Below, one piece after another: positions 2,221 through 19,458 of a DNA stretch of 32,590 nt. Source of the stretch: a virus. Its lineage: Duplodnaviria > Caudoviricetes. Every line of letters begins with the position of its first letter. The first letter of the stretch is position 1. Location: positions 1 through 32,590 of the IMG/VR virus record IMGVR_UViG_3300010273_000008; one strand, written 5' to 3'. The notes under the pieces are model-generated. The model saw only the letters and a program-made list of their open reading frames with translations, was not told where the DNA came from and ran no database searches. A program made the translations under genes and the position numbers.

Positions 2221-2221
2221 A

Positions 2222-2721: not shown

Positions 2722-2776
2722 CATATTTTTTATACTAATATTATATAAATTATCGTTTTTATCTAAAGTTTTACAA

Positions 2777-3376
2777 TTACAGATTCCTGTTATATTTTAC
2801 TGGATTTCTTAATTTATAGTCTACATCTTGCCAATATTTGCTGTTATACGGTTCACCAGTTAGCCAAGTGAATATTGCTGTTATTTCATCTAAAGCAGTA
2901 TATTGTACATAAGCTGTTTTGTTGTTGTGTACATATTGTATAGATTTAGGTTTAACCTTACATTGTTCTGCTAATATATTGTTTACTGATTGAATCAATA
3001 TATAATTACCATATAGTCTTAACCTAAGCCTATAGTATTTCTCTTTATTTTTGCTAAAATTATTGTATGTTGTGCAATAATCTAAATAAGAATGTATTTC
3101 AAAATATGCTCTCATAAAATCTTTATAATCATCGAGCATAGGAATATCTCTTTGTTCTGAATTTCTTTCTGTCCATCCTGGCAAATCATCTGGAGTAATA
3201 GACGATGTTTTCAAAACATATTGCACCTTTCCACTTGTGCCAAGTTGCTCATATATACTGTTATTGCAATATTTTTGTATTTGCTCAAGAAAATATTTGT
3301 CTTGATGCCTAAATACAAATCTGTTATCTTGAAAACTGCCTATATTCCAAATGATACCCAATGCATAGTTATCCAT
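2777..3376 (-). CDS. degenerate LAGLIDADG (DOD) endonuclease-fold protein
   Basis: Two helix motifs YALGIIWNIGSF and FMRAYFEIHSYL resemble YxLGxxxADG and FxRGxFDGDG but lack the acidic catalytic residues. Confidence 0.55.
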   Translation of the reverse strand: MDNYALGIIWNIGSFQDNRFVFRHQDKYFLEQIQKYCNNSIYEQLGTSGKVQYVLKTSSITPDDLPGWTERNSEQRDIPMLDDYKDFMRAYFEIHSYLDYCTTYNNFSKNKEKYYRLRLRLYGNYILIQSVNNILAEQCKVKPKSIQYVHNNKTAYVQYTALDEITAIFTWLTGEPYNSKYWQDVDYKLRNPVKYNRNL

Positions 3377-3419
3377 AGATTATATTGTACCATAATTCTC
3401 TTGAATTTTCTCTACTAAT

Positions 3420-4304
3420 TTATTTACGTATCTCATATAATATTCTGTTATGCTCTATAGCTTCTTCTTTTCTACCTAGCATTTCAGCTACACCAACTGA
3501 AACACCTTGCATTTTATTAGACATTCTGTTATTGAAATCGTCTTCAATCCATTTTAGCAAATCAATATTTTTATTCTTTATTTCTTGTACTGCATCATCT
3601 ATTCTGGATATAGAACATATTGGATATACATATTCATTTATTTGAACATAGGCTTTATCATAATCTTGAGTCTTGTTTTTTATCGCATAAAACTTATATC
3701 CATCTACTTCTTTCAGAAACGTCATTCGTTTACGCTGTATTCCATCACTATGAACGCATTTACCTAATATGTTATTTTTATTCTGCTCTTTTTTCTCTTT
3801 GCTTTTTTGTTTCTGTTCTGTTATATAATAATTATAATCAATAGCATTGTTTATATCTTCTGGTTTAACTTTTACTCCACACACTAAACCAACAATATTA
3901 TTTTCTTTATCATATATTACAAGCGGAGCATACTTTGAGGCCTTTGTATCATAATATAATTTACACTTTAATGATGTAAAGAAATTATAATATTCTTCTC
4001 TAATTGCAATTTCATTACTGTTAATTACTATATTATATTTTTCACCACTTGAAGAAACAAAATTTATATTAATAGACTTAGGAATGTATTCTTCAACATC
4101 CATGTCAGGCTCTCTTTTTATTATATCATTCAATATATTAACCACGCTTTTTGCCAATTGTTCATTTGTTTCAAAAGTATCAATAAATTCATTCTGCTTT
4201 TTAGTTAACAATGAACGTTTAATTATAAAGTGTGCATTTGAAACATATTCGCTGTTATGCACCTTTTTATCTTTGAAAAAATTTTTAAAATTGTATCCTG
4301 CCAT
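3420..4304 (-). CDS. hypothetical protein (294 aa)
   Basis: Long ORF with GGAGG RBS. Confidence 0.8.
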   Translation of the reverse strand: MAGYNFKNFFKDKKVHNSEYVSNAHFIIKRSLLTKKQNEFIDTFETNEQLAKSVVNILNDIIKREPDMDVEEYIPKSININFVSSSGEKYNIVINSNEIAIREEYYNFFTSLKCKLYYDTKASKYAPLVIYDKENNIVGLVCGVKVKPEDINNAIDYNYYITEQKQKSKEKKEQNKNNILGKCVHSDGIQRKRMTFLKEVDGYKFYAIKNKTQDYDKAYVQINEYVYPICSISRIDDAVQEIKNKNIDLLKWIEDDFNNRMSNKMQGVSVGVAEMLGRKEEAIEHNRILYEIRK

Positions 4305-4306
4305 TG

Positions 4307-4651
4307 TTATTCCTCCAATCCTAGTTTCTCAATTTGTTTTTTGTAGTACCATTTGCCACCCTTATACCCTTCTTTTAGGTATTCGGCTCTATGTGTTCTG
4401 TATATGAGCAAAAATCCTTTAATTTGTTCTTCCTGCTCTTGTGTTATTTCTTCTGGACTCTTACCATATACCATACTGTATATTTCATGTGCTTTTTGCG
4501 TGTCTATTGATAGCGAATATGGTATATGCTTTTTGCTTTTTCTTTTACCATTCGGATGAAAATTTGCATTATAATAATCCTGGTATGAGTGATTAGATAA
4601 TATATTATATATATCTATTTTAGCTTTTAATAGTGCTTGTTCTGTGAACAT
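4307..4651 (-). CDS. hypothetical protein
   Basis: ORF with GGAG RBS, co-oriented with neighbours. Confidence 0.75.
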   Translation of the reverse strand: MFTEQALLKAKIDIYNILSNHSYQDYYNANFHPNGKRKSKKHIPYSLSIDTQKAHEIYSMVYGKSPEEITQEQEEQIKGFLLIYRTHRAEYLKEGYKGGKWYYKKQIEKLGLEE

Positions 4652-4705
4652 TATATCAACTCCATTTTATATTTTTATTCAGGGAAGTTTTTTAGGCTTC
4701 CCCTG

Positions 4706-4909
4706 CTACCAATCCATTCCTTCGGCATCCTGCACTGCCGAAACCAAACCATCAAACAATTCGGATTCGCCTAATAATTGATAAAGACTAACTACTACTG
4801 AATATGGTACATCATATTCGTCTGCTAAATCTTGTAAGTATTCTTTTAAGCTGTTATAGCCGTTTTCCCTTAATGCTTCCATTGTTTCAGGTTTTAACAT
4901 TGTTATCAA
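4706..4909 (-). CDS. small acidic hypothetical protein
   Basis: ORF with AAGGAG RBS; probable start ATG at 4900. Confidence 0.75.
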   Translation of the reverse strand: MITMLKPETMEALRENGYNSLKEYLQDLADEYDVPYSVVVSLYQLLGESELFDGLVSAVQDAEGMDW

Positions 4910-4963
4910 CTCCTTTTGATTTTATGAATATATTGTAACAAAAATATGTCGTTATTTATTGTT

Positions 4964-5251
4964 TTATTTAATTTTAATCCTATATCTTTTGTCTATCCCA
5001 TATATAACTTCTTTAACTGTATAATTTTCTAGTATTAAAGCCAAATCTTTATACATTCTGGGAGATACTTCAATTTCTGCTCCATTTATTATTTGATTGT
5101 ACACTTGCTCTAATTTTTGCTGGTATTCCTGTTCAATAATATCACTGAATGTTAATTTATATCCTCTCATACTCTCTGTGCTATCTGCATAACTTTTTGC
5201 AAAATTAATTAACGCATTTACATTTTTTGTTGACACTGTTTGCCTTGACAT
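4964..5251 (-). CDS. hypothetical protein
   Basis: ORF with AAGGAG RBS. Confidence 0.75.
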   Translation of the reverse strand: MSRQTVSTKNVNALINFAKSYADSTESMRGYKLTFSDIIEQEYQQKLEQVYNQIINGAEIEVSPRMYKDLALILENYTVKEVIYGIDKRYRIKIK

Positions 5252-5296
5252 TTATATATCTCCTTTCTATTTACCATAAAATAATAATTTTATTGC

Positions 5297-5491
5297 TTAA
5301 AAATATGGTTTTTTACTAAATTCCTTCAACAAATCTTTTTCGCTAATTTCATGAGTTAACAACTTAACCATATCATCATCGGCTTCTTTTTTGTTGTCAT
5401 ATTCATTTAAAACCTTGCAAATCATATATTTACCCGTTGTTGTGCTGTGCATTATATAACATTTTTTTAACCCTTTGCTTATTATCTCCAT
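5297..5491 (-). CDS. hypothetical protein
   Basis: ORF with AGGAGG RBS, bounded by junction sites 5276 and 5516. Confidence 0.75.
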   Translation of the reverse strand: MEIISKGLKKCYIMHSTTTGKYMICKVLNEYDNKKEADDDMVKLLTHEISEKDLLKEFSKKPYF

Positions 5492-5533
5492 ATTAAAATC
5501 CTCCTTATAACTTGAATGAAAAATTGTTTTATT

Positions 5534-5836
5534 TTAACTACATTTCCTTTCAATAAACCAATCTATAGGCTTATTACATAGTTCAATATTACTCGGCTTA
5601 CTATTAAGATGTTTAATACTACCATCAAACATTGAATTACAATCTAAATCCAAATCATTGTAATTCTGTTCACATTCTAACCTTATAAATATAGCAAACA
5701 TATCGCCAGTACATTTTTTCCATATTTCTACTCTACTTTCAGGATACATTATAAGATATTCCTTTAAGTTTTGCCATTGTTTCTTTTCACAATCTATCGA
5801 ACATTTAATTCCACCAATTTGCAACCAATGAACCAT
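5534..5836 (-). CDS. hypothetical protein
   Basis: ORF with GGAGGTG RBS. Confidence 0.75.
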   Translation of the reverse strand: MVHWLQIGGIKCSIDCEKKQWQNLKEYLIMYPESRVEIWKKCTGDMFAIFIRLECEQNYNDLDLDCNSMFDGSIKHLNSKPSNIELCNKPIDWFIERKCS

Positions 5837-5851
5837 TTCACACCTCCAAAT

Positions 5852-6004
5852 TTATTTTATTTGTTTAATCCATGCTTTGGGAATCCATTGTTTTTTAGTA
5901 TACAATTTATAGTAACAATTACCATGATATTCTCGTATGTCAAGAATTTCATACCATACATCTCCTACCAATGCTAATTTGCCAATTTCATTTTTATTAA
6001 TCAT
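5852..6004 (-). CDS. small hypothetical protein (50 aa, not in ORF track)
   Basis: MINKNEIGKLALVGDVWYEILDIREYHG...; AAAGGA RBS. Confidence 0.65.
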   Translation of the reverse strand: MINKNEIGKLALVGDVWYEILDIREYHGNCYYKLYTKKQWIPKAWIKQIK

Positions 6005-6036
6005 AGTTACATCCTTTCTAAATAAAATTAATTGTT

Positions 6037-6210
6037 TTATATTGTTTTAACACAATCAGGATGACAACCCTCATATAACCCAAATTTCGTTTTTACATCT
6101 ACACGTTCAAAATCTTCGTTTACATCTCCTGCCCTGTATCCTATTATAACACCATCAATCCATTCATTTTCTTTTGTTTTGCTGTTATAAACCAATAATT
6201 TACATTTCAT
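6037..6210 (-). CDS. small hypothetical protein (57 aa, not in ORF track)
   Basis: MKCKLLVYNSKTKENEWIDGVIIGYRAGD...; AAGGAG RBS; stop inside junction site 6022. Confidence 0.7.
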   Translation of the reverse strand: MKCKLLVYNSKTKENEWIDGVIIGYRAGDVNEDFERVDVKTKFGLYEGCHPDCVKTI

Positions 6211-6241
6211 TTTTTAAACTCCTTTCAATCAAATTGTTATT

Positions 6242-6427
6242 TTAAACAAAAACCCAATAATATGGAGCATCAAACTTATTTAAAAACTCTTTTGATACTT
6301 CTCCTGCATAATTTTCAGTATCACACCATACTATTTTATATTTATCTTTTGTTTCATCAATTATTCTTGCTTCTCTGTAATAATCTCCCTTTCCATTTGG
6401 ATATACTAATATTTTTTTACCTATCAT
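6242..6427 (-). CDS. small hypothetical protein (beta-rich, possibly SH3/Tudor-like)
   Basis: AGGAGG RBS; stop inside junction site 6228. Confidence 0.7.
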   Translation of the reverse strand: MIGKKILVYPNGKGDYYREARIIDETKDKYKIVWCDTENYAGEVSKEFLNKFDAPYYWVFV

Positions 6428-6599
6428 TTTTATATACCTCCTGCAATTCCCAAATTTTAAACTCTAATTCTTGAAATTTATTTGCACAAATATCAATTGT
6501 ACTGTTTGAATAATCTAAACTGCTATAAACTTCTTGAGATAGTAATTTACATGTATTTACTATCTGCTCTAAAATATCTAAAATAGATTTATCGTTCAT
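6417..6599 (-). CDS. small hypothetical protein
   Basis: AGGAGG RBS. Confidence 0.7.
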   Translation of the reverse strand: MNDKSILDILEQIVNTCKLLSQEVYSSLDYSNSTIDICANKFQELEFKIWELQEVYKNDR

Positions 6600-6624
6600 T
6601 TCGTAATCCCCCTCCTATAAAGGA

Positions 6625-6969
6625 TTATTTTATGAAAAACTTATCTGTTCGTTTACAATATAATCTTTTGTCTGTTATACCTTTGCCGATAAATTTATTG
6701 TTTTGCTGATATTCTGACTTTTCACTAATATACATACTAGCTGAATATTTAAAATTTGTTGCAGCTTTAGAATGGTTTTTCCCTCCTAAATAACACATTA
6801 CTGCTTCTTTCAAAGAATCATATCCATAATTATATTCATTATTTGTCTTATTTCTAAATCTCCATCCATAATCTTCATCCTTCCAAAACATAACTTCTTC
6901 ATTTTCCCACATTCCTGACTTTGAGTTTTTTGTTAAAATAATTTCAGATGTTATTTCTTTATAATTCAT
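6625..6969 (-). CDS. hypothetical protein flanked by near-identical junction sites
   Basis: ORF between ataaaggattattttat (6617) and ataaaaggattattttat (6998). Confidence 0.75.
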   Translation of the reverse strand: MNYKEITSEIILTKNSKSGMWENEEVMFWKDEDYGWRFRNKTNNEYNYGYDSLKEAVMCYLGGKNHSKAATNFKYSASMYISEKSEYQQNNKFIGKGITDKRLYCKRTDKFFIK

Positions 6970-7011
6970 TATTACACCATCCTTCCTGTTATTTTGAATA
7001 AAAGGATTATT

Positions 7012-7200
7012 TTATATCAAATCAAGACTACTTTCATAAAAGGCTATTTCCTTGTCTAAAAATGCCCAATAACATATAACAAGCGTTTTCCCAGGAATTA
7101 GTTCTGTGTCTGTTATAATTTTTTTTACTATCCCTACATGTCCTTGAAAATCATCTACAGGATAATTTACTTCAACTCTATCGCCTATTTTAAAACCCAT
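7012..7200 (-). CDS. small SH3/KOW-like protein
   Basis: FKIGDRVEV..G.VG.V pattern; AGGAGG RBS. Confidence 0.65.
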   Translation of the reverse strand: MGFKIGDRVEVNYPVDDFQGHVGIVKKIITDTELIPGKTLVICYWAFLDKEIAFYESSLDLI

Positions 7201-7201
7201 A

Positions 7202-7393
7202 TTATAACCTCCTTATATTATAAATATCAATGTTTTTTTTTTTTATTTCTGTTATATTATTATTTTCTTTCCCAAATGCTTTCCTAAATTCTTCAATTAT
7301 ATCAGGTATCATCACTTTTGGTATTATGTAGAAAATTTCTGCTAGAAAAATTATTAATATTATCGTCCTTACAATTATATCCAAGTATTTCAT
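7202..7393 (-). CDS. small membrane protein
   Basis: One N-terminal hydrophobic helix; AGGAGG RBS. Confidence 0.7.
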   Translation of the reverse strand: MKYLDIIVRTIILIIFLAEIFYIIPKVMIPDIIEEFRKAFGKENNNITEIKKKNIDIYNIRRL

Positions 7394-7501
7394 CTTTATT
7401 ACCTCCTGTTATAGTTTCTTCCGGTTTTGGAATTTTACATCCACATTTACAACATATCCAATATTCGCTGAACGTATCAACGGCTTTATTGTGTTTTTAT
7501 C

Positions 7502-7577
7502 TGGTGACCCACCGGAGACTCGAACTCCGGACACCTTGATTAAAAGTCAAGTGCTCTACCGCCTGAGCTAGTGGGTC
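7502..7577 (-). tRNA. tRNA-Lys (UUU)
   Basis: GACCCAC acceptor stem, anticodon arm CTTGA-CTTTTAA-TCAAG, T loop GTTCGAG, encoded CCA. Confidence 0.97.
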
Positions 7578-7582
7578 ATATT

Positions 7583-7658
7583 TGGCTGGGATGGTAGGAC
7601 TCGAACCTACGAATGCTAGAGTCAAAGTCTAGTGCCTTACCCGCTTGGCTACATCCCA
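7583..7658 (-). tRNA. tRNA-Gln (UUG)
   Basis: TGGGATG acceptor stem, anticodon arm CTAGA-CTTTGAC-TCTAG, GGTTCGAG, encoded CCA. Confidence 0.97.
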
Positions 7659-7684
7659 CCATTAAAAAAGTAGTTATTTTATTT

Positions 7685-7828
7685 TTATACTCTACCCAAA
7701 AAACAATATCCTGCTTTATAACAAAATTCATATGCTTTTTGTCTTGCGTTTAAAAAATCTGTACTTTTTACTTCTAATATAAATATTTTGCCATCACTAT
7801 TATTTATCTTAAACTTAAATATTTCCAT
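7685..7828 (-). CDS. small hypothetical protein (47 aa, not in track)
   Basis: MEIFKFKINNSDGKIFILEVKS...; AGGAGG RBS. Confidence 0.65.
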   Translation of the reverse strand: MEIFKFKINNSDGKIFILEVKSTDFLNARQKAYEFCYKAGYCFLGRV

Positions 7829-7845
7829 TCTATTAACCTCCTATA

Positions 7846-8019
7846 TTAATCATTCCAATACTTATCAGCACATTTATTACAATATTGTTTACCGTTTATA
7901 ATGTTTACATTAGGCTGTTTTTTACCTTTTAGCCTGGAATATTTATCACCTAAATATTTTCCACATTCGCAACATTGATATTGTGTATTTGGAAAACTAC
8001 TTACTGATGAACCAATCAT
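7846..8019 (-). CDS. small zinc-finger protein (57 aa, not in track)
   Basis: CCECG...YCNKC; AAGGAGG RBS. Confidence 0.7.
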   Translation of the reverse strand: MIGSSVSSFPNTQYQCCECGKYLGDKYSRLKGKKQPNVNIINGKQYCNKCADKYWND

Positions 8020-8042
8020 ATTAATTATAACCTCCTTTTATA

Positions 8043-8387
8043 TTAATATTCTTCATTTCCAACATCCATACCTAAATAATACATATCCCTTTTGCCATAC
8101 CAAAAATGTTCTGATAAATCCTCTAACTTTTTTCTGCCTGCTTTTAGTGCTTCAAAATCATTTTTTATATCATCATTTGTATAATTCATATAACGATTAG
8201 TTGAAATAGTCAACCTAAATTCTCTTCTGCTTTGTATAAGCCCGTTTTTGCTTGTATTTTTTGCAATAGGATATGCTCCAATTGTTAAGCCATAAACATT
8301 TGGATATTCTGCTGTATTATGTTCACTCCAATCTTCCAGTTGAATTTTTGTTCCGTTCGGCATTATTGCACGCTCTAATATTTTCAT
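8043..8387 (-). CDS. hypothetical protein
   Basis: AAGGAGG RBS. Confidence 0.8.
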   Translation of the reverse strand: MKILERAIMPNGTKIQLEDWSEHNTAEYPNVYGLTIGAYPIAKNTSKNGLIQSRREFRLTISTNRYMNYTNDDIKNDFEALKAGRKKLEDLSEHFWYGKRDMYYLGMDVGNEEY

Positions 8388-8407
8388 TGTTACAACCTCC
8401 TTTTATA

Positions 8408-8713
8408 TTAACATTTACAAACTATTTGCATATTTCCAATTACACCATTTCTTTTATCATTTGTTAAATAAAAAGTTTCTTTTTTATATTCATATTTACA
8501 TGGTTTAATACTATTAATCAAGTCAATTATGTCATCCCATTTCTTACCACTTCGCCTTACTGTAAATTCTGCTGGATGATAACCATCGCTAAAATATCCA
8601 ACAAAATCAATATCATTATCAATAAATAAGTTAGCAATTTTACAAACAATGCTTGTCGTTATATCGCCATATACCTTGAATTTTAAACAACGTTCTGTTA
8701 TATAATTATTCAT
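8408..8713 (-). CDS. hypothetical protein
   Basis: AAGGAGG RBS. Confidence 0.75.
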   Translation of the reverse strand: MNNYITERCLKFKVYGDITTSIVCKIANLFIDNDIDFVGYFSDGYHPAEFTVRRSGKKWDDIIDLINSIKPCKYEYKKETFYLTNDKRNGVIGNMQIVCKC

Positions 8714-8743
8714 AAATTTAAACCTCCTTATATTGATATAAAA

Positions 8744-8920
8744 TTATGTTCTCGTTATTCTTACGTTCTTCTCAATCTCTTTTGCTTGTTTAATAAATAT
8801 CTTCTGTTTTGATTCAGGCAACATATCAAACATATCCCAAAACATTTCCATAAGATACATATCTCCAATACGCTCTGCAATTTCTTCTAGTTCTTTACGA
8901 TTCTTTTGTTTGTTTGTCAT
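8744..8920 (-). CDS. small hypothetical protein (58 aa, not in track)
   Basis: MTNKQKNRKELEEIAERIGDMYLMEMFWDMFDML...; AAGGAG RBS. Confidence 0.7.
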   Translation of the reverse strand: MTNKQKNRKELEEIAERIGDMYLMEMFWDMFDMLPESKQKIFIKQAKEIEKNVRITRT

Positions 8921-8939
8921 GCTGTTATACTCCTTTCTG

Positions 8940-9188
8940 TTATACTTTCTTTTTTATTGGATCATATGGTAACCTATACATACAATCTTCATTCCATTTA
9001 TACCCTGCCATTTCTGGATGCTGTTCCTCTATAATTTGTTTTACATTATTCCAATCTATAACATTACAATTGTTAAAAAGAATTCTTCTAAGAATTATTT
9101 CATTTGATTTATCTTCTTGAGGAAGTATATATTGACTAAGATATTCAAAAATCGTTAAATTATTTTTCTCGTTTAGCATTATAAACAC
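8940..9188 (-). CDS. hypothetical protein
   Basis: AAGGGAG RBS; probable start ATG at 9179. Confidence 0.7.
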   Translation of the reverse strand: MFIMLNEKNNLTIFEYLSQYILPQEDKSNEIILRRILFNNCNVIDWNNVKQIIEEQHPEMAGYKWNEDCMYRLPYDPIKKKV

Positions 9189-9240
9189 TCCCTTTCAATC
9201 AAATTATACTTTTATCTAATATTTGCTGTTATGGTTGTTA

Positions 9241-10104
9241 TTAATAACAATGTATTCTTTCGATTTTTCTCGTTCCATCTGGCATAGCATATTCTATTAT
9301 ATTATCAAAAATACAATCTAAATCTTTTTCGCTACATTCATCCATCCACTCACGAATTACTTGTGGTTCACCTGTTTCTTTTGCTTTTGCAAAAATAGCA
9401 TCAAGTTTCTTTTTATACGCTTCTCGTTTTTCTAAAATTGGCTGGAGAATATCAGATAATTTCATTTCAAAGCCAGTCACAATTGTTTCCTTAAACCCAT
9501 GATATTTTTGAACTTCGCTGTTATATTCATGGTTTAAAACTTCTCCAAGGTCTTCAATAGTACCTATAGATTTTTTAACTATTCTTTGGATATAATCACA
9601 AGGGTTAGACACAAACTCATTTTCACCCACGATTTTTTTAATCGCTCTTTCCATAATGTTTTGTTCTAATCCTTGCAAATCTTCAGGTAAATTTCTTATC
9701 CATGCTTGATAATGTGGAAAATCACAACCAACAATACTAAAATGAATATTTCTTTTGCCTTCTACCAATTCATTAACCACTTGATTTATATTACTTTCTC
9801 TTTCAATTTCAAATTGTTTTAAAAGACTTTTAACTTCTTTTAAAATTTCTTCAGGAAGTCCAACACCTCCAAAAGTTTTACCTTTTATCTTTACATTATA
9901 GAAAGTCATAGCGTTTTTATCTGGCAAAAATTCAGAATTATAGAAATAACCATCATTATCTTTATTCTCTTTTATACCTGGTATTTTATATTCCATAACT
10001 AACTTCCCATATTTATTAAGTTTGGGATTTCTGAATACAAATTTAATTCCCTGTTTTTCAAATTTTAAAGCTGCAACCATACCTTTAAATTCTTTATTAT
10101 CCAT
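9241..10104 (-). CDS. hypothetical phage protein (287 aa)
   Basis: Long ORF with AAGGAGG RBS; C-terminal Cys/His cluster. Confidence 0.85.
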   Translation of the reverse strand: MDNKEFKGMVAALKFEKQGIKFVFRNPKLNKYGKLVMEYKIPGIKENKDNDGYFYNSEFLPDKNAMTFYNVKIKGKTFGGVGLPEEILKEVKSLLKQFEIERESNINQVVNELVEGKRNIHFSIVGCDFPHYQAWIRNLPEDLQGLEQNIMERAIKKIVGENEFVSNPCDYIQRIVKKSIGTIEDLGEVLNHEYNSEVQKYHGFKETIVTGFEMKLSDILQPILEKREAYKKKLDAIFAKAKETGEPQVIREWMDECSEKDLDCIFDNIIEYAMPDGTRKIERIHCY

Positions 10105-10237
10105 GATAACCTCCTTGTTTTCTGTAAGTATTTTTATTCGCCCTTACAGTAGCGATATTTGTAGAATGAGGCTGTTTATTTTATACCGCCAACCTCATTA
10201 GAACGGCTGTTATTTGTTTTTCAATCAAAACCTTGTT

Positions 10238-10468: not shown

Positions 10469-10521
10469 ACTATCAACCGCCTTTCAAATTATTAATATAA
10501 TTTATTTACCTTACATATTAT

Positions 10522-11746: not shown

Positions 11747-12919
11747 CTATATTGTGTTAGCATATGCATCCATTACATTGTCAGGAATATATGACGCGGC
11801 GAATTCTTCATCAAAACTGCTTAAAAATTCGTCAACATCTTCTGTGTTTACATCGTCAATTTCTACTTCTTCCTTTTTGGTATCTGTTTTATTTACCTTT
11901 TGATTTTTGCTATTTATCTGTACAAATCTGTTATATGCTTCTGTTATGGCTTGCGTCCTCTTCTTAATGCTTTCAGGTTTTGCAGATCCAGCACCTGCAA
12001 ATGCATTATAGGTTTCATCAATGCTTGCAGATCGCTTGCCTGCAAAGAAATACTTTACGAATTCGATAAAGGTTTCTAGCTGAATATTGTTATTCATAGA
12101 GCTTAGTGCTAATGGTACAAGGCTTAATAGATGGGTGCGTGTTACAATTCTTTTTGCTATCCTGGCATCCTGCTTCTCTCCTGTTGATATGATGTTCTGA
12201 TAGGTTTCTAATATTCTATCATATGCTTTAGTTAGTTCTGCGATTTGGTCATCTGTTACATCTGCATGTTCCATGAGTGGTCTAATAACCTTTGTTTCAA
12301 ATGATGGATTTTCAACGTTTAATAATGCCCATGATTTAATAACTAGTTCTTCATTCACGTATTTATTTAACATTTTTTCTGTTAATGCAGAAGTAAAAAG
12401 TGGATGGTTTGCAAGTTGCCGAATTTTTTCAATGCTTTTTGCACGAATGCGTGTAAGCTCAATCGAAGATAGAGGCTTTCCGTTGTTTAACCTAAAGAAA
12501 ATGGAATTAATTTCTTCATCGTCTAATTCTTCAAAGTAATAAATCGTTAATGAATAATCCTTAATCCTATCTTGAAATTCTTCGTCTAATTCATCAAAAG
12601 TTAATCCGTTAATATCTACCAATTCTCCTGATTCGGCTGTTACATCTGGTATATTTGCTAGCATAAACCTGTTATTCATAAAATCTGCAATTGTGGTGAT
12701 ACGCTGTCGCCCATCAAGCATTGAATATCTTTCGTTGTCTTTACTTGCAAACATCGGTGGTATGGGGAAATTCTCAATAAGACTGTGAATTAGTAATGAT
12801 TTCCTGTCATCGTCCCAACAAAAATTTCTCTGGATAGCATTGTCAAATACAATGTTACCCTTCTCCAGCATCTTAACAATCTGTTTGACTGTCCATGTAA
12901 TGTTAGCTTTTTTAATCAT
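11747..12919 (-). CDS. DUF262 (GmrSD N-terminal, ParB/Srx-like) domain protein with acidic tail
   Basis: IQRNFCW..RKSLLIHSLIENFPIPPMF..LDGRQRITTI..FFRLNNGKPLS motifs; no HNH/DUF1524 recognisable. Confidence 0.85.
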   Translation of the reverse strand: MIKKANITWTVKQIVKMLEKGNIVFDNAIQRNFCWDDDRKSLLIHSLIENFPIPPMFASKDNERYSMLDGRQRITTIADFMNNRFMLANIPDVTAESGELVDINGLTFDELDEEFQDRIKDYSLTIYYFEELDDEEINSIFFRLNNGKPLSSIELTRIRAKSIEKIRQLANHPLFTSALTEKMLNKYVNEELVIKSWALLNVENPSFETKVIRPLMEHADVTDDQIAELTKAYDRILETYQNIISTGEKQDARIAKRIVTRTHLLSLVPLALSSMNNNIQLETFIEFVKYFFAGKRSASIDETYNAFAGAGSAKPESIKKRTQAITEAYNRFVQINSKNQKVNKTDTKKEEVEIDDVNTEDVDEFLSSFDEEFAASYIPDNVMDAYANTI

Positions 12920-13009
12920 TATACATAACCTCCATAATATTATTTTTTGCCTGTTATGGCATGGGATAGGATTTTTAAGGCTGGAAAATCCTTCAAAAAC
13001 CTGTTATAC

Positions 13010-13285
13010 TCAATTATAAGCATTTAAAACAATTTCCATTTTGCAACAATCTATATTCAATGCTTCAAACCACACTCCCTCAATCTGAAAATCAAATATC
13101 CAATGCTTAGTTGTTATATCACTAAAATATATAGGCTTGTTAAATTGTTTAAGCTGGTTTATTATAGCATCATTAAGTAAATTATTGTTGTCTATTACTT
13201 TAAACATCCAAGTCCCTGCTGTTGTGCCTTCTAGTTGATAATTATTTGTTCCTTTTACTGTTATAACATTATCGGTTTTTATCAT
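13010..13285 (-). CDS. hypothetical protein
   Basis: AAGGAGG RBS. Confidence 0.75.
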   Translation of the reverse strand: MIKTDNVITVKGTNNYQLEGTTAGTWMFKVIDNNNLLNDAIINQLKQFNKPIYFSDITTKHWIFDFQIEGVWFEALNIDCCKMEIVLNAYN

Positions 13286-13466
13286 TGTTTTACCTCCTTT
13301 TTATATTAACTGTTTTATAATTTCCGTTCTGTTGAAATTCCTGCCCATGATCCAACCATGCACTTCAACTAAATATTTTTGTCCTGCTTTCATTTCCAGC
13401 ATTTTAAAACCTCCAATATTATATTGATATTTTGGGCATTTTAAGCGGATGCCCTAACCGCTGTTG

Positions 13467-13955
13467 TTATCTTTGTATGAAATTATATCCCCAGGTTGAC
13501 TTGTCTGTTATATCAACTATTTTATGGTAATATTTACCTGTCTTTTTTTCGTGTAAATATTGAGACGTATAAGAACCCGTTAAAAATTCAGACATACAAA
13601 ACATTTCAATATTGTTTATAGTACACCATTTAAGCGGAGGCAATATGTTTAACATTTCTTCGTATTTTTCCGCTGTTATTTCTGTTAATGGTTGGTTAAT
13701 GTAATAATCTTTTTGCTTTTGCAAAAATTCTTCAAATGTCATTATTTCATACTTCTTATTTTGTGCTTGTTTTAAGTAAGCCTTAAAGCTATCAACATCA
13801 GGGTAATTTTTACAATGGTTTTCCCATGTCTCAATATCTTCCTTATTTGTCCTAATAGCTTTTTGTAGCTTACGTTCTGCATCTTCTTGACTGTCTGCAA
13901 AATCGTAAATACTAAAATTTACAGTATCAGCTATACATAATTTGTTGTTATTCAT
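13467..13955 (-). CDS. DUF1419-like protein
   Basis: EITAEKYEEMLNILPPLKW..FCMSEFLTGSYTS motif; family recalled from memory, not searched. Confidence 0.55.
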   Translation of the reverse strand: MNNNKLCIADTVNFSIYDFADSQEDAERKLQKAIRTNKEDIETWENHCKNYPDVDSFKAYLKQAQNKKYEIMTFEEFLQKQKDYYINQPLTEITAEKYEEMLNILPPLKWCTINNIEMFCMSEFLTGSYTSQYLHEKKTGKYYHKIVDITDKSTWGYNFIQR

Positions 13956-13971
13956 TATAAAACCTCCTTTT

Positions 13972-14232
13972 TTATATTAATACTGTAAATAATTGGTTTA
14001 GCTTGTCCCAGTCGTTACATTCTGTTATGTCTTTTTTGTAAATATCTGGAGTAATATAACTATATGCTTTTAGGTATTCATTATAGCCTTTTACCCCTGC
14101 AATTGATAATATTTCACCTGTTATACCGTCAATAAATTGCTTTAATTCACCTTCCACATTACCCCATTTGATAGTTTTTGTATTTGTGTCAATTGTAAAA
14201 TCAAACTGATTTTTAAACCTGCATTTTAACAT
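13972..14232 (-). CDS. hypothetical protein
   Basis: GGGAGG RBS. Confidence 0.75.
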   Translation of the reverse strand: MLKCRFKNQFDFTIDTNTKTIKWGNVEGELKQFIDGITGEILSIAGVKGYNEYLKAYSYITPDIYKKDITECNDWDKLNQLFTVLI

Positions 14233-14611
14233 TTTAAAACCTCCCTTCTTACTTATTAATCATGTTACTTTTACAGAATTCAATTGCTGTCAATAAATTC
14301 TCTTCAGTTCCATATGCTTCATTATCAGATAAGAGATTATCCTCTTTAAAAATAATGTCTGTTATATAGTCGTTATCTCTAAAAACTGCAATATAAAATC
14401 TCATCATCTGATTATTAGAACCATGCAACCGTTATCGGCGGCAATTGATATTTTATATTCGCCAAACTCTAACGTCAAATTAATTAATGATCCAAATTCA
14501 TTAGCCATAAAAAATCCTGTCATTTTTTAAACCTCCTTTAGATTATAATTAATTTTACCATGATACTATAAGTACTGATTTTTAAACCTGCATTTTAACA
14601 TTTTAAAACCT
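14205..14611. repeat. 38-bp exact direct repeat (14205-14242 and 14574-14611)
   Basis: actgatttttaaacctgcattttaacattttaaaacct occurs twice; it is the 5' end of ORF 13972-14232. Confidence 0.9.
14249..14523 (-). pseudogene. frameshifted hypothetical gene
   Basis: AAGGAGG RBS; MTGFFMANEFG..ADNGC continues in another frame as GSNNQMMRFYIAVFRD..MINK*; 275 nt. Confidence 0.6.
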
Positions 14612-14644
14612 TCTAATTAACTTATATTAATTTTTTTGCAACCT

Positions 14645-14664
14645 TACGGGGATTATTCCCCGTA
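14645..14664 (-). terminator. hairpin, possible terminator
   Basis: tacgggga-ttat-tccccgta immediately after the stop of the upstream ORF. Confidence 0.45.
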
Positions 14665-14666
14665 TG

Positions 14667-14843
14667 TTATTTACTATTGTAAATTTCTTCCAATTTATCC
14701 CAATCTATTATGGCTGGTTCTCTTCCAATTTTTGTTAATGCCAATTCTCCGTCTTCGTCTTTCTTGAGCCAGTAGTAAATCTCCCTGGTAATAGCTATTT
14801 TTTTAGTCCCGTTTTTGTACTCTTGCAAAACTTTTACTTGCAT
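14667..14843 (-). CDS. small hypothetical protein
   Basis: AGGAGG RBS before ATG at 14843 (MQVKVLQEY...). Confidence 0.7.
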   Translation of the reverse strand: MQVKVLQEYKNGTKKIAITREIYYWLKKDEDGELALTKIGREPAIIDWDKLEEIYNSK

Positions 14844-14931
14844 TGTCAAACCTCCTAATATGTATTTTAGAGTGTTATTCACTCCATACAGCGCACTATT
14901 ATATTAATAATGCGCTGAAGCAACGAATAAC

Positions 14932-15150
14932 TTATGCTCTTTTAAGTAATGGTAATTCGGCTATTATTTCTTCTAACTCGTCGATCCTATCTTCCGTCAA
15001 TTCGCTATCCCAAAAAGCCATTAATTCTTGGCATATTTCATAAATCTGCCATAAATCAGCCTGGGATTCTTCCACTCCTAAAACGTTTACCGTTTCCAAT
15101 CCAGTTTCTACCAAGGTGTCAATAGTAATATACAACTTTCTGTAAGTCAT
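14932..15150 (-). CDS. small acidic hypothetical protein
   Basis: AAGGAGG RBS; own promoter. Confidence 0.75.
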   Translation of the reverse strand: MTYRKLYITIDTLVETGLETVNVLGVEESQADLWQIYEICQELMAFWDSELTEDRIDELEEIIAELPLLKRA

Positions 15151-15196
15151 TGTAAAACCTCCTTATTAATTTTTTCAATGTTCATTTTATATTATT

Positions 15197-15225
15197 ATTA
15201 TATCATATGTTTTTTATACTGTCAA
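15197..15225 (-). promoter_or_regulatory. repeated early sigmaA promoter
   Basis: TTGACA-17bp-TATAAT, extended TG, AT-rich UP element. Confidence 0.85.
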
Positions 15226-15266
15226 TACTATTTTTCAAAAATTTTTAAGTTTTTCATTGAATAAAA

Positions 15267-15461
15267 CTAACATTTTATTCCATTTTCTTGAAAAAAATTT
15301 AACAAGTCTTGTAATTCAGGAAATATATTTTTATATCTTCTTAATGTCCATCCCTTCCCCTTTAATTGACGAATAATAAAACTGTTCTCTTTATCAGAAA
15401 ATTGCTCTTTAAGATTTTTAATGTCTTGGCGTAATGTCTCATAATCATATACTTTTTTCAT
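15267..15461 (-). CDS. small hypothetical protein
   Basis: GGAAGGA RBS before ATG at 15461; stop inside junction site 15261. Confidence 0.7.
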   Translation of the reverse strand: MKKVYDYETLRQDIKNLKEQFSDKENSFIIRQLKGKGWTLRRYKNIFPELQDLLNFFQENGIKC

Positions 15462-15560
15462 AACATCATCCTTCCCATAAAATACCATCCTATAAAAAAT
15501 AGGTTGAGCGGAAGGCTGCTGTTATGCAGCCCGCCGGAATTCTCGGCTGTCTCCCTAGCC

Positions 15561-15719
15561 CTATTTTTCGCAATAATAATATTGTCCTGTTTTTTCGCTG
15601 TAATAAATTGGCTTATTAAAATTAAAAGGCACAACCTCGGCATCTCTTGGTAAACAATTAACTTCTTTTTTCTCGAATAATTTTTCCGTACCTGTAAAAG
15701 TTAATTCATAGATTTTCAT
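15561..15719 (-). CDS. small hypothetical protein (52 aa, not in track)
   Basis: MKIYELTFTGTEKLFEKKEVNCLPRDAEVV...; GGAGG RBS and own promoter. Confidence 0.7.
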   Translation of the reverse strand: MKIYELTFTGTEKLFEKKEVNCLPRDAEVVPFNFNKPIYYSEKTGQYYYCEK

Positions 15720-15750
15720 TCTTTTTTACCTCCATTTATTTTATATTTTT

Positions 15751-15779
15751 ATTTTAACATATATTTTTTATACTGTCAA
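15751..15779 (-). promoter_or_regulatory. repeated early sigmaA promoter
   Basis: TTGACA-17bp-TAAAAT. Confidence 0.8.
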
Positions 15780-15817
15780 TACTAATTTTCAAAAAATTTT
15801 AAGATAAAAGCAAAATT

Positions 15818-16042
15818 TCATTTATTCTTTTCTATAATATAAATACTTCTATATGGATAATATTCTGTTCTCTTGTTGATAGTATATTGAGGATATTTAT
15901 ATAGTCTTGCAATGTCCATTTCTAAGGCTGTTTTTGTTGAATATAGCGTTAATTCTATTGTATTTTTATCTATCTTTTTAAAATAGTATTCTTTTGTTTT
16001 AGGCTTATATAATTTTGCCTTAATCTCTGTAATTGTTAACAT
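15818..16042 (-). CDS. small basic hypothetical protein
   Basis: AGGAGG RBS; bounded by junction sites 15804 and 16066. Confidence 0.75.
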   Translation of the reverse strand: MLTITEIKAKLYKPKTKEYYFKKIDKNTIELTLYSTKTALEMDIARLYKYPQYTINKRTEYYPYRSIYIIEKNK

Positions 16043-16074
16043 ATTACCAACCTCCTGTTATTAAAATAAAAAGA

Positions 16075-16209
16075 CTATTTCATTAATTTACAATGTTTCT
16101 CAAAATAATCTGTTGTAACATATTTCCATCTGTTTTCTGTTATTGAGAATACCTCAACGCAAACAATTCCTTCTTTCACTACATAACAAAAATCTTTTAC
16201 TAATTCCAT
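16075..16209 (-). CDS. small hypothetical protein (44 aa, not in track)
   Basis: MELVKDFCYSVKEGIVCVEVFS...; AGGAGG RBS; bounded by sites 16066 and 16231. Confidence 0.7.
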   Translation of the reverse strand: MELVKDFCYVVKEGIVCVEVFSITENRWKYVTTDYFEKHCKLMK

Positions 16210-16247
16210 TGTAATCCCTCCTGTTATAGGATAAAATACCAGTTTTA

Positions 16248-16424
16248 TTAATAATACCTATGAAATAATTTCCAATACAATTCATCTAAACTATCATACG
16301 AACCCTTGGCACGGAGAAACATTTCTTTGACTTGAGGATTTTCTGAACCTCTGAAATAATCCATTTCTTTAGAATATTTTTCAAGCTGAGTTTCAAGATA
16401 TTGTTTTAATTCGGATTTTTTCAT
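16248..16424 (-). CDS. small hypothetical protein (58 aa, not in track)
   Basis: MKKSELKQYLETQLEKYSKEMDYF...; AAGGAGG RBS; bounded by sites 16231 and 16507. Confidence 0.75.
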   Translation of the reverse strand: MKKSELKQYLETQLEKYSKEMDYFRGSENPQVKEMFLRAKGSYDSLDELYWKLFHRYY

Positions 16425-16455
16425 TTTTTAATACCTCCTTAGATTTTATATTATT

Positions 16456-16483
16456 ATTATATCATATATTTTTATACTGTCAA
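16456..16483 (-). promoter_or_regulatory. repeated early sigmaA promoter
   Basis: TTGACA-16bp-TATAAT, extended TG. Confidence 0.8.
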
Positions 16484-16624
16484 TACTAATTTTAAAAATT
16501 GTTATGATAAAATCAAGTATTTATCGAATGTTATATTTACTCTTTTCTGTTATTTTTTGGATTTTTAATTATATGCTGTTATATATTTACAGTTATATAA
16601 TAAATTTTATATATAAAAACAGGC

Positions 16625-16647
16625 AAAAAAAGAGGCTCTAAGCCTCT
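16625..16647 (-). terminator. intrinsic terminator
   Basis: agaggc/gcctct hairpin followed by U-run on minus strand. Confidence 0.75.
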
Positions 16648-16668
16648 GTTATATTTGACTTACTTACT

Positions 16669-16887
16669 TTATATAGACAGTCTGATTGTGTTACCATTTC
16701 CGTCTTCCCAGCCGTCTACATCTGCCCCTGCGTCAAGATCTCTGATGATGGCATGCATATCGTCAATAGTTGCCGGGTAAATTGTACATATAAAATGTCC
16801 GTTATCAAGTATGATGTCAAATGCATGCAGGTCAAAATCAAAATGCTTCTCACATACCTTGTAACCGTTTCTTAACCAAGTTTTCAT
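16669..16887 (-). CDS. small hypothetical protein
   Basis: GGAGG RBS before ATG at 16887 (MKTWLRNG...). Confidence 0.75.
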   Translation of the reverse strand: MKTWLRNGYKVCEKHFDFDLHAFDIILDNGHFICTIYPATIDDMHAIIRDLDAGADVDGWEDGNGNTIRLSI

Positions 16888-16921
16888 GTTCTCAACCTCC
16901 ATATATTTATTTTATACTTAT

Positions 16922-16949
16922 ATTATATCATATATTTTTATATTGTCAA
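16922..16949 (-). promoter_or_regulatory. repeated early sigmaA promoter; LexA-like box AAAC-ATAT-GTTC upstream at 16985-16996
   Basis: TTGACA-16bp-TATAAT, extended TG. Confidence 0.75.
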
Positions 16950-17055
16950 TAGTAATTTAAAAAAATTATATTGCTATTTTATAAAAACATATGTTCGGTA
17001 TATAAGCAAAAAAATAAAGCCTTTACAGGCTTTAGATGAAATACCAGTATTTATC

Positions 17056-17120
17056 GGCTGTTATAACTTATTAAGGCTGTTATAACTTATCATAGCTGTT
17101 ATAATCAATTATGGCTGTCT
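17056..17120. repeat. 19-bp period tandem repeat built on GCTGTTATAA
   Basis: Cores at 17058, 17077, 17096 and a degenerate one at 17115. Confidence 0.85.
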
Positions 17121-17179
17121 CATTATTTTATATGTGCTTTATTGCTTTAATGCTTTACTGATTTAAAGTATAAAAACAT

Positions 17180-17206
17180 AAAAAAAAGAGGCTTTAAGCC
17201 TCTTTA
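17180..17206 (-). terminator. intrinsic terminator
   Basis: aaagaggc/gcctcttt hairpin plus U-run; near copy of the terminator at 16625. Confidence 0.75.
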
Positions 17207-17695
17207 AACAATAGCCAATGCGGTATTAATTGCTATGCTCACCCCTTCCTGTGACATTTCCTTTTTTATCCAATTTGCCAACTGTATAAAATTGTAAATG
17301 TCATCTTCTGTTATTGTTTCCGCATCAACGGTAATTATGGTAATATCTTCCTTGACTATATCATTTTTGTCATTACTCCACCAACTGCCTACTGTGTCAT
17401 AGTATCTTATATTATTATTGTTATACAAACTTTCTATTTTATTATAACAATAATTTACATAATATCTATTATTTATATGCTTGTCAATATTTACAGTAGA
17501 TGGTATAAATAAACTAATATTGTTTTTGTCCTTATTTATTCTTATATATTCTCCGCCTGCTATGTTACTATATATCCCATCCTCAAACTGAGTTGCCCCT
17601 CCATAAAGCCTGGCGCCTTCTTCAAGTGATGCGACTTTTTTTCTGTCGCTTAAGAAAAAGCTAAAATGGAATTTTTTGGAATCAATTTTTACCAT
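17204..17695 (-). CDS. hypothetical protein, first gene of the left arm
   Basis: GGGAGG RBS; promoter at 17731-17759. Confidence 0.8.
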   Translation of the reverse strand: MVKIDSKKFHFSFFLSDRKKVASLEEGARLYGGATQFEDGIYSNIAGGEYIRINKDKNNISLFIPSTVNIDKHINNRYYVNYCYNKIESLYNNNNIRYYDTVGSWWSNDKNDIVKEDITIITVDAETITEDDIYNFIQLANWIKKEMSQEGVSIAINTALAIV

Positions 17696-17730
17696 TTTAA
17701 GACCTCCCCTGATTATTATTTTATATTAAT

Positions 17731-17759
17731 ATTTTATCGTCTTATATTAATATTGTCAA
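17731..17759 (-). promoter_or_regulatory. sigmaA promoter
   Basis: TTGACA-17bp-TAAAAT. Confidence 0.75.
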
Positions 17760-17798
17760 TAGTAATTTTTAATTTTATATTGCAATTTTATTAACAAT

Positions 17799-17850
17799 TT
17801 ATCCACATTATCCACAGGTAAATATTAAGTTATCCACAGAGTTATCCACA
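17799..17850 (+). promoter_or_regulatory. cluster of four perfect DnaA boxes
   Basis: TTATCCACA at 17799, 17808, 17830, 17842, all in the same orientation. Confidence 0.9.
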
Positions 17851-18612
17851 GGTAAACTCTTTACCCATTCCCGCCCTGTTATTTCGATTGTTAACCTATT
17901 CGTCAACTAAAGTTAACAATTAAGTTAACAATATATTGCCAATTCTTCCCATATTCTTATTCATGGTACAATATCCCATATATACTACTATTTGATGATA
18001 TGCTGTCTACTTATATTCTGCATCTATATTATACTTATAGACAGATTATTGCATCCTATATCCTTATATCCTGCTTTATTACTGCATTCCTGGTTTATTC
18101 ATTATTCCTTATATAATTATTATTATATAAGCAATATTACTTAAATCCGGTATGTTTACAAGTTTTTGGTTACTTTTTAGCCAGCAAGTCAGGGTAGCAC
18201 TTTCATCCATCTACCCACAAAATTTTTACCGATTCAATCCATTTTCTTACAAATCCACTAAAAAATCAATCGTACATCTATCGAACAAATCTAGTGTTCA
18301 TGCATATTTCACAACATCCCAAATATTTCAATTTTACATTTATATATCTATGCCATAATCCTTCAAACATAGTAATATCAATATTTCTAAAGGTTTAATG
18401 TTTAGTATTTGTCGAATGTATTTTTTAGTATTCGTACTAAATCATATAAAATACACTTCAAACTATTATAAAATAAGCATTTATAGACAACTAACACAGT
18501 AAGGTTACGATACATAATATTAATATAAAAAATTTTCATTTTCCTATTGACTATCATAATAAAAGATAGTAATATATTATTGAAGAAAACAACTAACAAA
18601 GGAGATGTTTAT

Positions 18613-19458
18613 ATGGTTAATTTGAATGAATTTAAAAATTATCTTATATCCTGTTCTAAGTCAGAAAATACTATATCTTCTTATATATCTGATTTAGAAC
18701 AATACTTCAGTCAGTATTCTACTTTATCTAGGGAAAACATATTAAAGTATAAGAATTCTCTTTCTAATAGTAGTGCATCTACTATTAATAGAAAACTTAC
18801 TTCTTTAAAACAATATAATGAATATCTTTTATCAACTAAACAAGTAGATGGTATTTATATACTAAAAGAGGATTTTATAAAGCAACAGAGTAAAGGTAAT
18901 CCAACTGATGTAACAACTAAACAAGTAGAAAAATTTCTTGAAAGAGTATTAACTAAGGATGCTGATTATAAGTCACGTAATATAGCAATTATTTATCTTA
19001 TAGCTAACACAGGTATAAGAAGGTCTGAATGTTGTAATCTCCTTCTTAGGAATATTGATTTAGAAAATAATGAAATGATAGTTATAGGTAAAGGCAATAA
19101 AGAAAGAACTGTATTATTAACTGATAAGGTTGTAGAAATATTAAAAAATTATCTTATAGACAGAAATAAATCTAAATATAAGGATAGTCCATATTTATTT
19201 GTGTCTGAACGTGGTAATAAATTATGTCCAGAGACTATAAATGATATTTTTGATTATTATAGTACACCTAAAAATAAGATTAGGCCACATCAGTTAAGGC
19301 ATAATTATGCTTCTACTGTTGTAGAAAATAATATACTTACTTTAACTGAACTACAGAATCAGCTTGGACATAGTAGTATTTCTACAACAGGAATATATAC
19401 TCATGCTAGGAAGGATACTATAAAGAAAAAGATTAATAAATTATGTATTGGTTATTAA
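18613..19458 (+). CDS. XerC/D-like tyrosine recombinase
   Basis: SAM-like N domain (SENTISSYISDL); catalytic R (TGIRRSE), K (GKGNKER), HxxR (HQLRH), H and Y (LGHSSISTTGIY); ATG at 18613 after AAGGAG. Confidence 0.93.
   Translation: MVNLNEFKNYLISCSKSENTISSYISDLEQYFSQYSTLSRENILKYKNSLSNSSASTINRKLTSLKQYNEYLLSTKQVDGIYILKEDFIKQQSKGNPTDVTTKQVEKFLERVLTKDADYKSRNIAIIYLIANTGIRRSECCNLLLRNIDLENNEMIVIGKGNKERTVLLTDKVVEILKNYLIDRNKSKYKDSPYLFVSERGNKLCPETINDIFDYYSTPKNKIRPHQLRHNYASTVVENNILTLTELQNQLGHSSISTTGIYTHARKDTIKKKINKLCIGY

Follow-up and report, generated by a model that had tools for sequence, protein, structure and literature searches.

Palindromic 18-bp sites at gene junctions of an SPbeta-like phage: candidate addressed points of gene exchange

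The locus

The virus record IMGVR_UViG_3300010273_000008, 32.6 kb long and analyzed here in its entirety (the window), carries an array of small genes with 18-bp palindromes at many of its gene junctions, and beside it a gene for a tyrosine recombinase. Left of 18.5 kb, every gene lies on the minus strand, and most are small and of unknown function, accompanied by two tRNA genes; domain labels were obtained for one GmrSD-N/DUF262 protein and one DUF1419 protein. Right of 18.6 kb, a YonO-type RNA polymerase, a PIN-PhoH protein, a metallophosphatase and a terminase are encoded, which mark the window as part of the genome of a large SPbeta-like phage from low-GC Bacillota; the late arm has the YonO-type single-subunit polymerase, PhoH and terminase by which such phages are recognized. 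Relatives were retrieved through recombinases 91–96% identical to that of the window, and one (G006) through a single array gene. The arrays are strongly mosaic, and the 274 open reading frames (ORFs) of ten arrays fall into 190 families.

Palindromic sites at gene junctions

A preliminary description of this DNA had listed eleven sites of the form ATNAAW-N6-WTTYAW, and all 11 coordinates fit that pattern (Table 1). Counted per strand over the whole window, this loose form has 32 matches, whereas 100 dinucleotide shuffles average 12.1 ± 4.6 (one of them reached 32), and it also matches at 10904, inside a gene, and at several places right of the recombinase. A strict form, AT[ACG]AAA-N6-TTT[TGC]AT, picked after the sites had been seen, matches eight times in positions 1–18500 and nowhere farther right. 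All eight matches lie inside the 5,066 bp of junction DNA; when this DNA alone was shuffled, the mean was 0.1 and the maximum 2, with none of 500 shuffles reaching eight. This comparison of junctions with shuffled DNA had been proposed as a check in the preliminary description, and it bears the enrichment out. Other spacer lengths in the range 3–10 give 0–2 matches each in the window, and the same specificity for 6-bp spacing is seen in SPbeta, phi3T and Perkons. The conserved arms are near-symmetric and only 5–6 bp long, and identity between sites with the same centre stops at the 6-bp arm edge.

Most sites fall between a stop codon and the next ribosome-binding site (RBS). The overlap with the upstream stop codon that had been described is found at six of the 11 sites, with a seventh (16231) touching it, but the other four are 5, 16, 27 and 146 bp away. 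Likewise, the placement before a promoter applies to three sites, which stand 24–36 bp upstream of strong -35 boxes, while 8/11 adjoin no strong promoter match. The intervals 16507–16231–16066–15804 each hold a single ORF, as had been noted (58, 44 and 74 aa). Among the variants previously listed, those at 5516 and 6616/6617 are one base short and those at 6022 and 17036 one base long; the one at 8738 has three mismatches in its left arm, is not credible and was dropped. Loose matches at 10904, 8468 and 8151 were also set aside, being intragenic and conserved along with their genes. A half-site at 15470–15487, previously overlooked, has an intact left arm in a related array (L026). All near-duplicate centres in the window (6617, 6022, 5516, 17036 and 15470) are damaged, and the centre at 17036, ACTGGTA, resembles what a hybrid of ACTTGA and CTGGTA might look like.

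The densest run of sites shares its DNA with a second kind of repeat. From 15150 to 17760 there are five to six near-identical strong promoters interleaved with terminators (on the coding strand, sigma-70 matches score 12/12 in three cases and 11/12 in three), an arrangement similar to the PeSLs discussed below. In relatives, genes move between these promoter/terminator repeats independently of the 18-bp sites.

Table 1. Array, recombinase gene and palindromic sites of the window (centres read on the coding strand; array counts are arrays with the same centre, for ACTTGA at a position weight matrix (PWM) score of at least 10; alleles are flank alleles).
Feature	Position	Strand	Centre	Remarks
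Hypervariable array	2777..17695	-		about 37 mostly small ORFans, two tRNAs, own promoters and terminators
Junction site	2745..2762	-	ACGATA	upstream of promoter region of mazF-like gene
Junction site	5276..5293	-	TTATTA	in none of the other arrays compared
Degenerate site	5516..5532	-	CAATT type, 5 bp	
Degenerate site	6022..6040	-	CAATTA type, 7 bp	6-bp CAATTA in G001 and G006
Junction site	6228..6245	-	TAACAA	3 arrays
Degenerate site	6617..6633	-	TAATCC	second TAATCC site, one base short
Junction site	6998..7015	-	TAATCC	
Junction site	9198..9215	-	GTATAA	5 arrays; 5 upstream and 4 downstream alleles
Junction site	10224..10241	-	CAAGGT	4 arrays; 4 upstream and 3 downstream alleles
Junction site	15261..15278	-	TGTTAG	7 arrays; 4 upstream alleles
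Half-site	15470..15487	-	CTGGTA	remnant of second CTGGTA site, left arm lost; intact in L026
Junction site	15804..15821	-	TTTTGC	7 arrays
Junction site	16066..16083	-	TAGTCT	7 arrays; 3 upstream and 3 downstream alleles
Junction site	16231..16248	-	CTGGTA	5 arrays; 5 upstream and 4 downstream alleles; moved in L026
Junction site	16507..16524	-	ACTTGA	between terminator and sigma-70-type promoter; 6 arrays
Degenerate site	17036..17054	-	ACTGGTA, 7 bp	
XerA-like tyrosine recombinase	18613..19458	+		intact, 281 aa, at strand switch; candidate enzyme, not favoured

Site centres in related arrays

The six-base centres were compared across 15 arrays (55 sites at PWM ≥ 12). Identical centres occur in 85 of 1,338 cross-genome site pairs, where 0.76 would be expected, and none of the 55 sites shares its centre with another in the same array. 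The order of common centres is conserved, with 90 comparisons concordant and 8 discordant, all eight stemming from the one move of CTGGTA in L026; a second displaced address, with a one-base variant centre, is found in G003 and lies outside this count. Starting at the recombinase, the consensus order is TATAAC, ACTTGA, CTGGTA, TAGTCT, TTTTGC, TGTTAG, CAAGGT, GTATAA, GGACGG, TAACAA and CAATTA. Four centres are common to G001 and G006, in order, the recombinases of which are 91% and 39% identical to that of the window, respectively; an ACTTGA match between the window and G006 is out of order and may be due to chance. SPbeta and phi3T, with 28 centres each, have 18 in common, all in order, and 12 of these have at least one unrelated flank. 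To judge from such comparisons, each centre behaves as an address, beside which the genes change.

The flanks were examined in pairs of sites with the same centre. From 128 pairs, nine were dropped as intragenic or offset matches, leaving 119 that were scored over 50-bp flanks: both flanks are unrelated in 46, only the upstream flank in 22, only the downstream flank in 6 and neither in 7, with 38 ambiguous, so that one or both flanks are unrelated in 74/119. At the arm edge, identity drops to background within 1–2 bp. The third base of the left arm varies, and does so together with the upstream gene, which places the crossovers inside the site. A scheme in which a centre stays linked to the gene downstream in every case, as in a single strand exchange, was rejected because downstream flanks are swapped too (the 6 downstream-only pairs and the 46 with both flanks).

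Individual slots illustrate the pattern. The slot between TAGTCT and TTTTGC is occupied by one family in five arrays and by unrelated genes in two. The TAG of the TAGTCT centre serves as stop codon for two unrelated upstream genes, and 13 unrelated families terminate on the TAA at position 2 of the site, in the left arm. After the gene that precedes TAATCC (6998) in the window, G006 has TAACAA, a mismatched address with the first three bases in common. This case and the damaged near-duplicates suggest that rare mismatched crossovers may occur and that their products then decay.

Two candidate recombinases

The recombinase gene next to the array is intact and divergent from it, as the preliminary description had stated, and R136, K160, H226, R229, H253 and Y262 are invariant among 55 aligned homologs. 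Its best models are XerA, XerC and XerD, all under cut-off, and XerA is the best solved relative of both phage recombinases considered here. The suggestion that this enzyme acts on the sites is poorly supported by its distribution. G011, G012 and G013 have orthologs of 52–55% identity at this strand switch; their N6 matches number 8, 7 and 11, respectively, where other spacings give 10, 10 and 14. No site excess is seen in G010 (58% ortholog) or G014–G016 (39–40%), of which all but G016 are incomplete. In total, 7/9 records with an ortholog of at least 39% identity (G010–G016) lack a site excess, while G001 and G006 have sites. Conversely, six site-rich genomes lack the ortholog: SPbeta, phi3T, BUCT082, Perkons and MT835469 have 37, 40, 39, 59 and 63 matches, against 9–18, and the complete provirus G024 has 57, against 16. 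De novo scans for dyads and junction motifs in the site-less G011–G013 revealed no convincing alternative dyad. A scan of genome contigs retrieved two short phage-like contigs and 78 Xer-like loci, most of which lie on chromosomes and come from Bacteroidota, and found no excess of sites (148 matches against 134). Conspicuous as it is, the divergent recombinase is thus probably not the enzyme responsible.

Its surroundings suggest, as a lead only, a role in replicon maintenance. The GC-skew minimum, at 18,840, falls within the gene, and near it, at 17799–17850, are four DnaA-box-like words in one orientation. A similar cluster is present in G001, L046, L033, L004 and L007, and not in L018, L022, L026, L038, L029 or L041; it is possibly an origin or a DnaA sink. 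On the other side, a 178-aa ORF (19977–20513) has RepL/winged-helix look-alikes in the Atlas (RepL on 26–69% of members of two clusters), is preceded by near-palindromic TTGCATGA repeats at 19890–19945, and gave no tblastn match in 13 other genomes scanned. A dif-like site at about 19478–19505, downstream of the recombinase, was considered and discarded, as it is changed or deleted in all seven relatives compared.

A second recombinase is encoded among the tail genes of G001, the most complete close relative compared; it is 29% identical to SPbeta YomM, and a site lies on either side of its gene. A YomM-like gene is present in 7/7 site-rich genomes with the tail region covered, and absent from the site-poor TR-TP1 and PMBT24. 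Ten further YomM-bearing records were found, six of which have an approximately twofold or greater site excess. YomM-like proteins keep the residues R-K-H-R/K-H/W-Y. A single YomM-like sequence found no solved relative, and its profile matched XerA and XerH weakly. The window ends before the tail region, and its own phage would be expected to carry such a gene there. The recombinase of the tail operon fits better than the neighboring one and is the more likely of the two to act on the sites. No paper joining yomM with SPbeta was found in a search mostly outside the subscription literature.

Relation to known systems

In engineered recombinase-mediated cassette exchange, heterospecific lox or FRT sites have 13-bp arms and different spacers, and only like sites recombine. 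The phage sites are similar in that the arms are constant and the spacers vary, and the DNA lying between two unlike sites would be swapped, but the system would be a natural one, with many addresses and very short arms. A 6-bp centre between inverted arms is also the core geometry of Xer sites. Close natural counterparts are the pdif sites and dif modules of Acinetobacter Rep_3/OrfX plasmids, at which crossover by XerC/XerD needs identical or near-identical spacers (PMC13141974). There too, the sites on either side of a short gene module have two arms separated by a 6-bp spacer, and matching spacers allow one module to be replaced between related replicons, a replacement seen in the phages by comparison only. 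However, pdif sites have distinct 11-bp XerC and XerD arms, alternate in orientation, depend on host enzymes and have spacers that repeat within a plasmid, leading to inversion and excision, whereas the phage sites have near-symmetric arms, a single gene orientation, centres unique within each genome and an enzyme that is so far a candidate. The sites of XerH (difH), XerS (difSL) and XerA likewise have a short centre between inverted arms that end in A-tracts, the left arm of difH ending in ATGAAAA (PMC5357621), but those single-recombinase systems resolve dimers at one site per chromosome, while the phages have tens of sites with differing centres.

Possible mechanism and alternative explanations

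We lean, without great confidence, towards reading the palindromes as spacer-matched crossover points for a phage tyrosine recombinase, more probably the YomM-like enzyme than the neighboring one. The geometry and 6-bp spacing of the sites, their position at junctions, their unique and ordered centres and the replacement of flanks at the arm edge are the observations from which this reading starts. The recombinase would bind both arms and cut where the 6-bp centre meets them, and strands would be exchanged only between matching centres, as at pdif sites. Exchange would happen when related phage genomes occupy one cell: one crossover would yield a hybrid genome and two would replace a single slot, while the differences among its centres would keep a genome from deleting its own DNA. 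On rare occasions, partly matched centres might cross over and so move or duplicate addresses, and the duplicates would then decay. Exchange through the sites would cover a minority of events, the remainder occurring in RBSs, promoters and other intergenic DNA. The wider proposal, that SPbeta-like phages possess a genome-wide natural cassette-exchange system with tens of addressed minimal sites read by the YomM family, is offered more tentatively, as a serious possibility that we stop short of calling probable.

Several observations weigh against this interpretation. The preliminary description had asked whether gene gain and loss breakpoints in related phages fall in the N6 spacer, and some breakpoints do lie at the sites: 36 of 204 breakpoint ends are at sites and 168 elsewhere (68 in start regions, 69 in other intergenic DNA and 31 in genes). 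Per kb, the density is 24 at sites (1.3% of the DNA), 10 at start regions and 0.4 in genes, although the site list was built from shared centres, which inflates the enrichment at sites, and the genome pairs cannot be counted as independent events. When short exact islands with unrelated flanks were sought without bias, 706 were found (against 117 in one round of block shuffles), of which only 26 are sites; the other 680 are AT-rich, promoter-like or RBS repeats, and ordinary microhomology is thus plentiful. The conserved arms, at 5–6 bp, are short beside the 11 bp of dif and pdif. With regard to the enzyme, four of the ten further YomM-bearing records have no site excess (all are fragments, 31–39% complete), and neither does G013, despite a YomM-like gene 55% identical to that of SPbeta (11 matches against 14), in which the His/Trp alignment column is occupied by Met; the SPbeta-type YomM has Lys in place of the second catalytic Arg. 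The support for crossover at these sites comes from the comparison of sequences.

Much of the exchange uses promoter and RBS repeats in the manner of the PeSLs of T4-type phages, promoter and stem-loop repeats of about 100 bp that recombine with any other copy and for which no site-specific enzyme is identified (PMC2839356). The arms might accordingly dock a non-catalytic DNA-binding protein of phage or host, with same-centre sites persisting as the last 18-bp islands of identity, used by annealing or homologous recombination as proposed for PeSLs. We regard this as rather unlikely, but it is the alternative with most in its favor: start regions and other intergenic DNA collect 137/204 breakpoint ends, 680/706 identity islands are not sites, the tRNA block is missing from G006 with an RBS repeat at each end of the gap, SPbeta encodes a Sak4-like annealing protein (by annotation), and neither recombinase co-occurs perfectly with the sites. 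Both PeSLs and the phage sites are repeated intergenic elements, found in hyperplastic regions at places where genes have been inserted, deleted or replaced. The 18-bp sites, however, have neither promoter nor hairpin and are addressed; unlike promoter and RBS repeats, their centres never recur within a genome (0 among 55), and docking would leave this uniqueness, the damaged near-duplicates and the exact 6-bp spacing unexplained.

The preliminary description had framed the locus as an integron-like cassette system. Gene exchange between related phages at the sites survives from that proposal, and the integron framework does not. Integrons, including phage-borne ones, do share a tyrosine recombinase divergent from, and adjacent to, small genes of unknown function with palindromic sites (PMC4889954; PMC9892861). 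Under such a scheme, the 281-aa recombinase would excise single-gene circles and re-insert them or capture new ones, for which its intact catalytic residues, its place next to the stretch where sites are densest and each interval holds one gene (16507 to 15804), its 91–96% conservation in the closest site-bearing relatives and the moved addresses in L026 and G003 could be cited. By definition, though, integrons have an IntI with a specific extra domain and attC sites that fold into single-stranded hairpins and have R and L boxes and a variable terminal structure (PMC4889954). The integron-integrase model TIGR02249 scores the recombinase at 72.7 bits against a cut-off of 265, in two pieces, and the sites are 18 bp long with no unusual or attC-like fold at 10/11; the absence of both an IntI score and an attC fold argues that this is not an integron. 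The array also has its own promoters instead of promoterless shuffled cassettes, and its genes keep fixed addresses (order 90 to 8 concordant) rather than joining next to the integrase. Sites are spread genome-wide, including among the distant tail genes, the distribution of orthologs and sites is discordant in both directions, and the GC-skew minimum, DnaA-box-like repeats and RepL/winged-helix-like ORF fit a role in replicon maintenance. We therefore consider an integron-like platform improbable.

Operators, the alternative that the preliminary description itself had raised, are more improbable still. A dyad with a free centre and the three sites 24–36 bp upstream of strong -35 boxes recall SPBRE, the element bound in SPbeta by the recombinase-fold repressor MrpR, and MrpR-like proteins (23–25% identical to that of SPbeta) are encoded in the early regions of G001 (C1:9645–10685) and G006 (C1:49260–50270). 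Yet 8/11 sites have no adjoining strong promoter match, the spacing varies, and ordered unique centres with swapped flanks are not behavior expected of operators. SPBRE is a 15-bp promoter-region motif found about ten times per genome, with ten peaks by chromatin affinity purification sequencing (ChAP-seq), against 37 N6 matches of 16 bp in SPbeta; MrpR keeps three of seven catalytic residues, in contrast to all six positions in the family of the window's recombinase (PMC10516654). G017 and MT835469, moreover, have sites and no detected MrpR homolog. Least credible of all is that the palindromes form RNA or single-stranded DNA hairpins concerned with processing, pausing or attC-like recombination. 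Their arms are complementary and most lie between stop codon and RBS, but in 8 of 33 distinct site variants the arm position that varies is mispaired (A.G in six, C.T in two), so that the arms are not compensated, folding z-scores are within ±1.5 at 10/11 sites (the exception, 10224, takes in neighboring sequence), and Rfam found nothing in the window beyond the two tRNAs.

Other features of the window

Between 2787 and 17876, the coding (minus) strand has 52 copies of the heptamer ATAACAG, against 7 expected, and the opposite strand has none; right of the recombinase there are two copies. One-strand clusters of it are also found in G001, G006, G011, G012 and Perkons, and not in SPbeta or phi3T. 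As G011 and G012 carry ATAACAG without N6 sites, it is a signal separate from them. In PMBT24 (L246–L250) there are about ten dyads of the type TTAAAA(T/A)TTA(A/T)TTTTAA with a near-constant 5-bp centre; these TAAAA-N5-TTTTA dyads look like a candidate operator family rather than addresses, and are distinct from the N6 sites.

Within the accessory array, tRNA-Lys(TTT) and tRNA-Gln(TTG) lie at 7502–7658, and the GmrSD-N (DUF262) domain protein (11747–12919, 390 aa) has a counterpart in G001 with 66% identity. A gene for an IS200/IS605-type TnpB (898–2022) is flanked by a full mazF-like gene (2222–2602) and a partial second copy (654–857; 75% identity over 105 bp). At 20523–20687 is a short GIY-YIG nuclease fragment of 54 aa, the position of which differs among relatives.

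Implications

No description of these sites was found in the literature searched, which included few subscription papers and no supplements; the supplement of PMC10516654 might list further motifs. The Perkons paper leaves the roles of orphan tyrosine recombinases as open hypotheses (PMC13245101), and the present proposal, if true, would provide a role for one of them. What the window adds is a dense set of close relatives, which place the breakpoints with single-base precision.

That phage genomes are mosaic with breakpoints at gene borders has long called for an explanation, and the usual answer is illegitimate recombination followed by selection, or short shared boundary sequences. The palindromic sites are a concrete candidate mechanism for such gene-border mosaicism, and the pair SPbeta and phi3T makes it testable in Bacillus subtilis. 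For engineering, too, a recombinase that needs only very short arms and keeps many spacers orthogonal would be useful. If the reading is correct, related phages in one cell would exchange accessory genes one slot at a time and without self-deletion, and a dedicated, programmed engine of phage mosaicism would have gone unnoticed in the model phage SPbeta.

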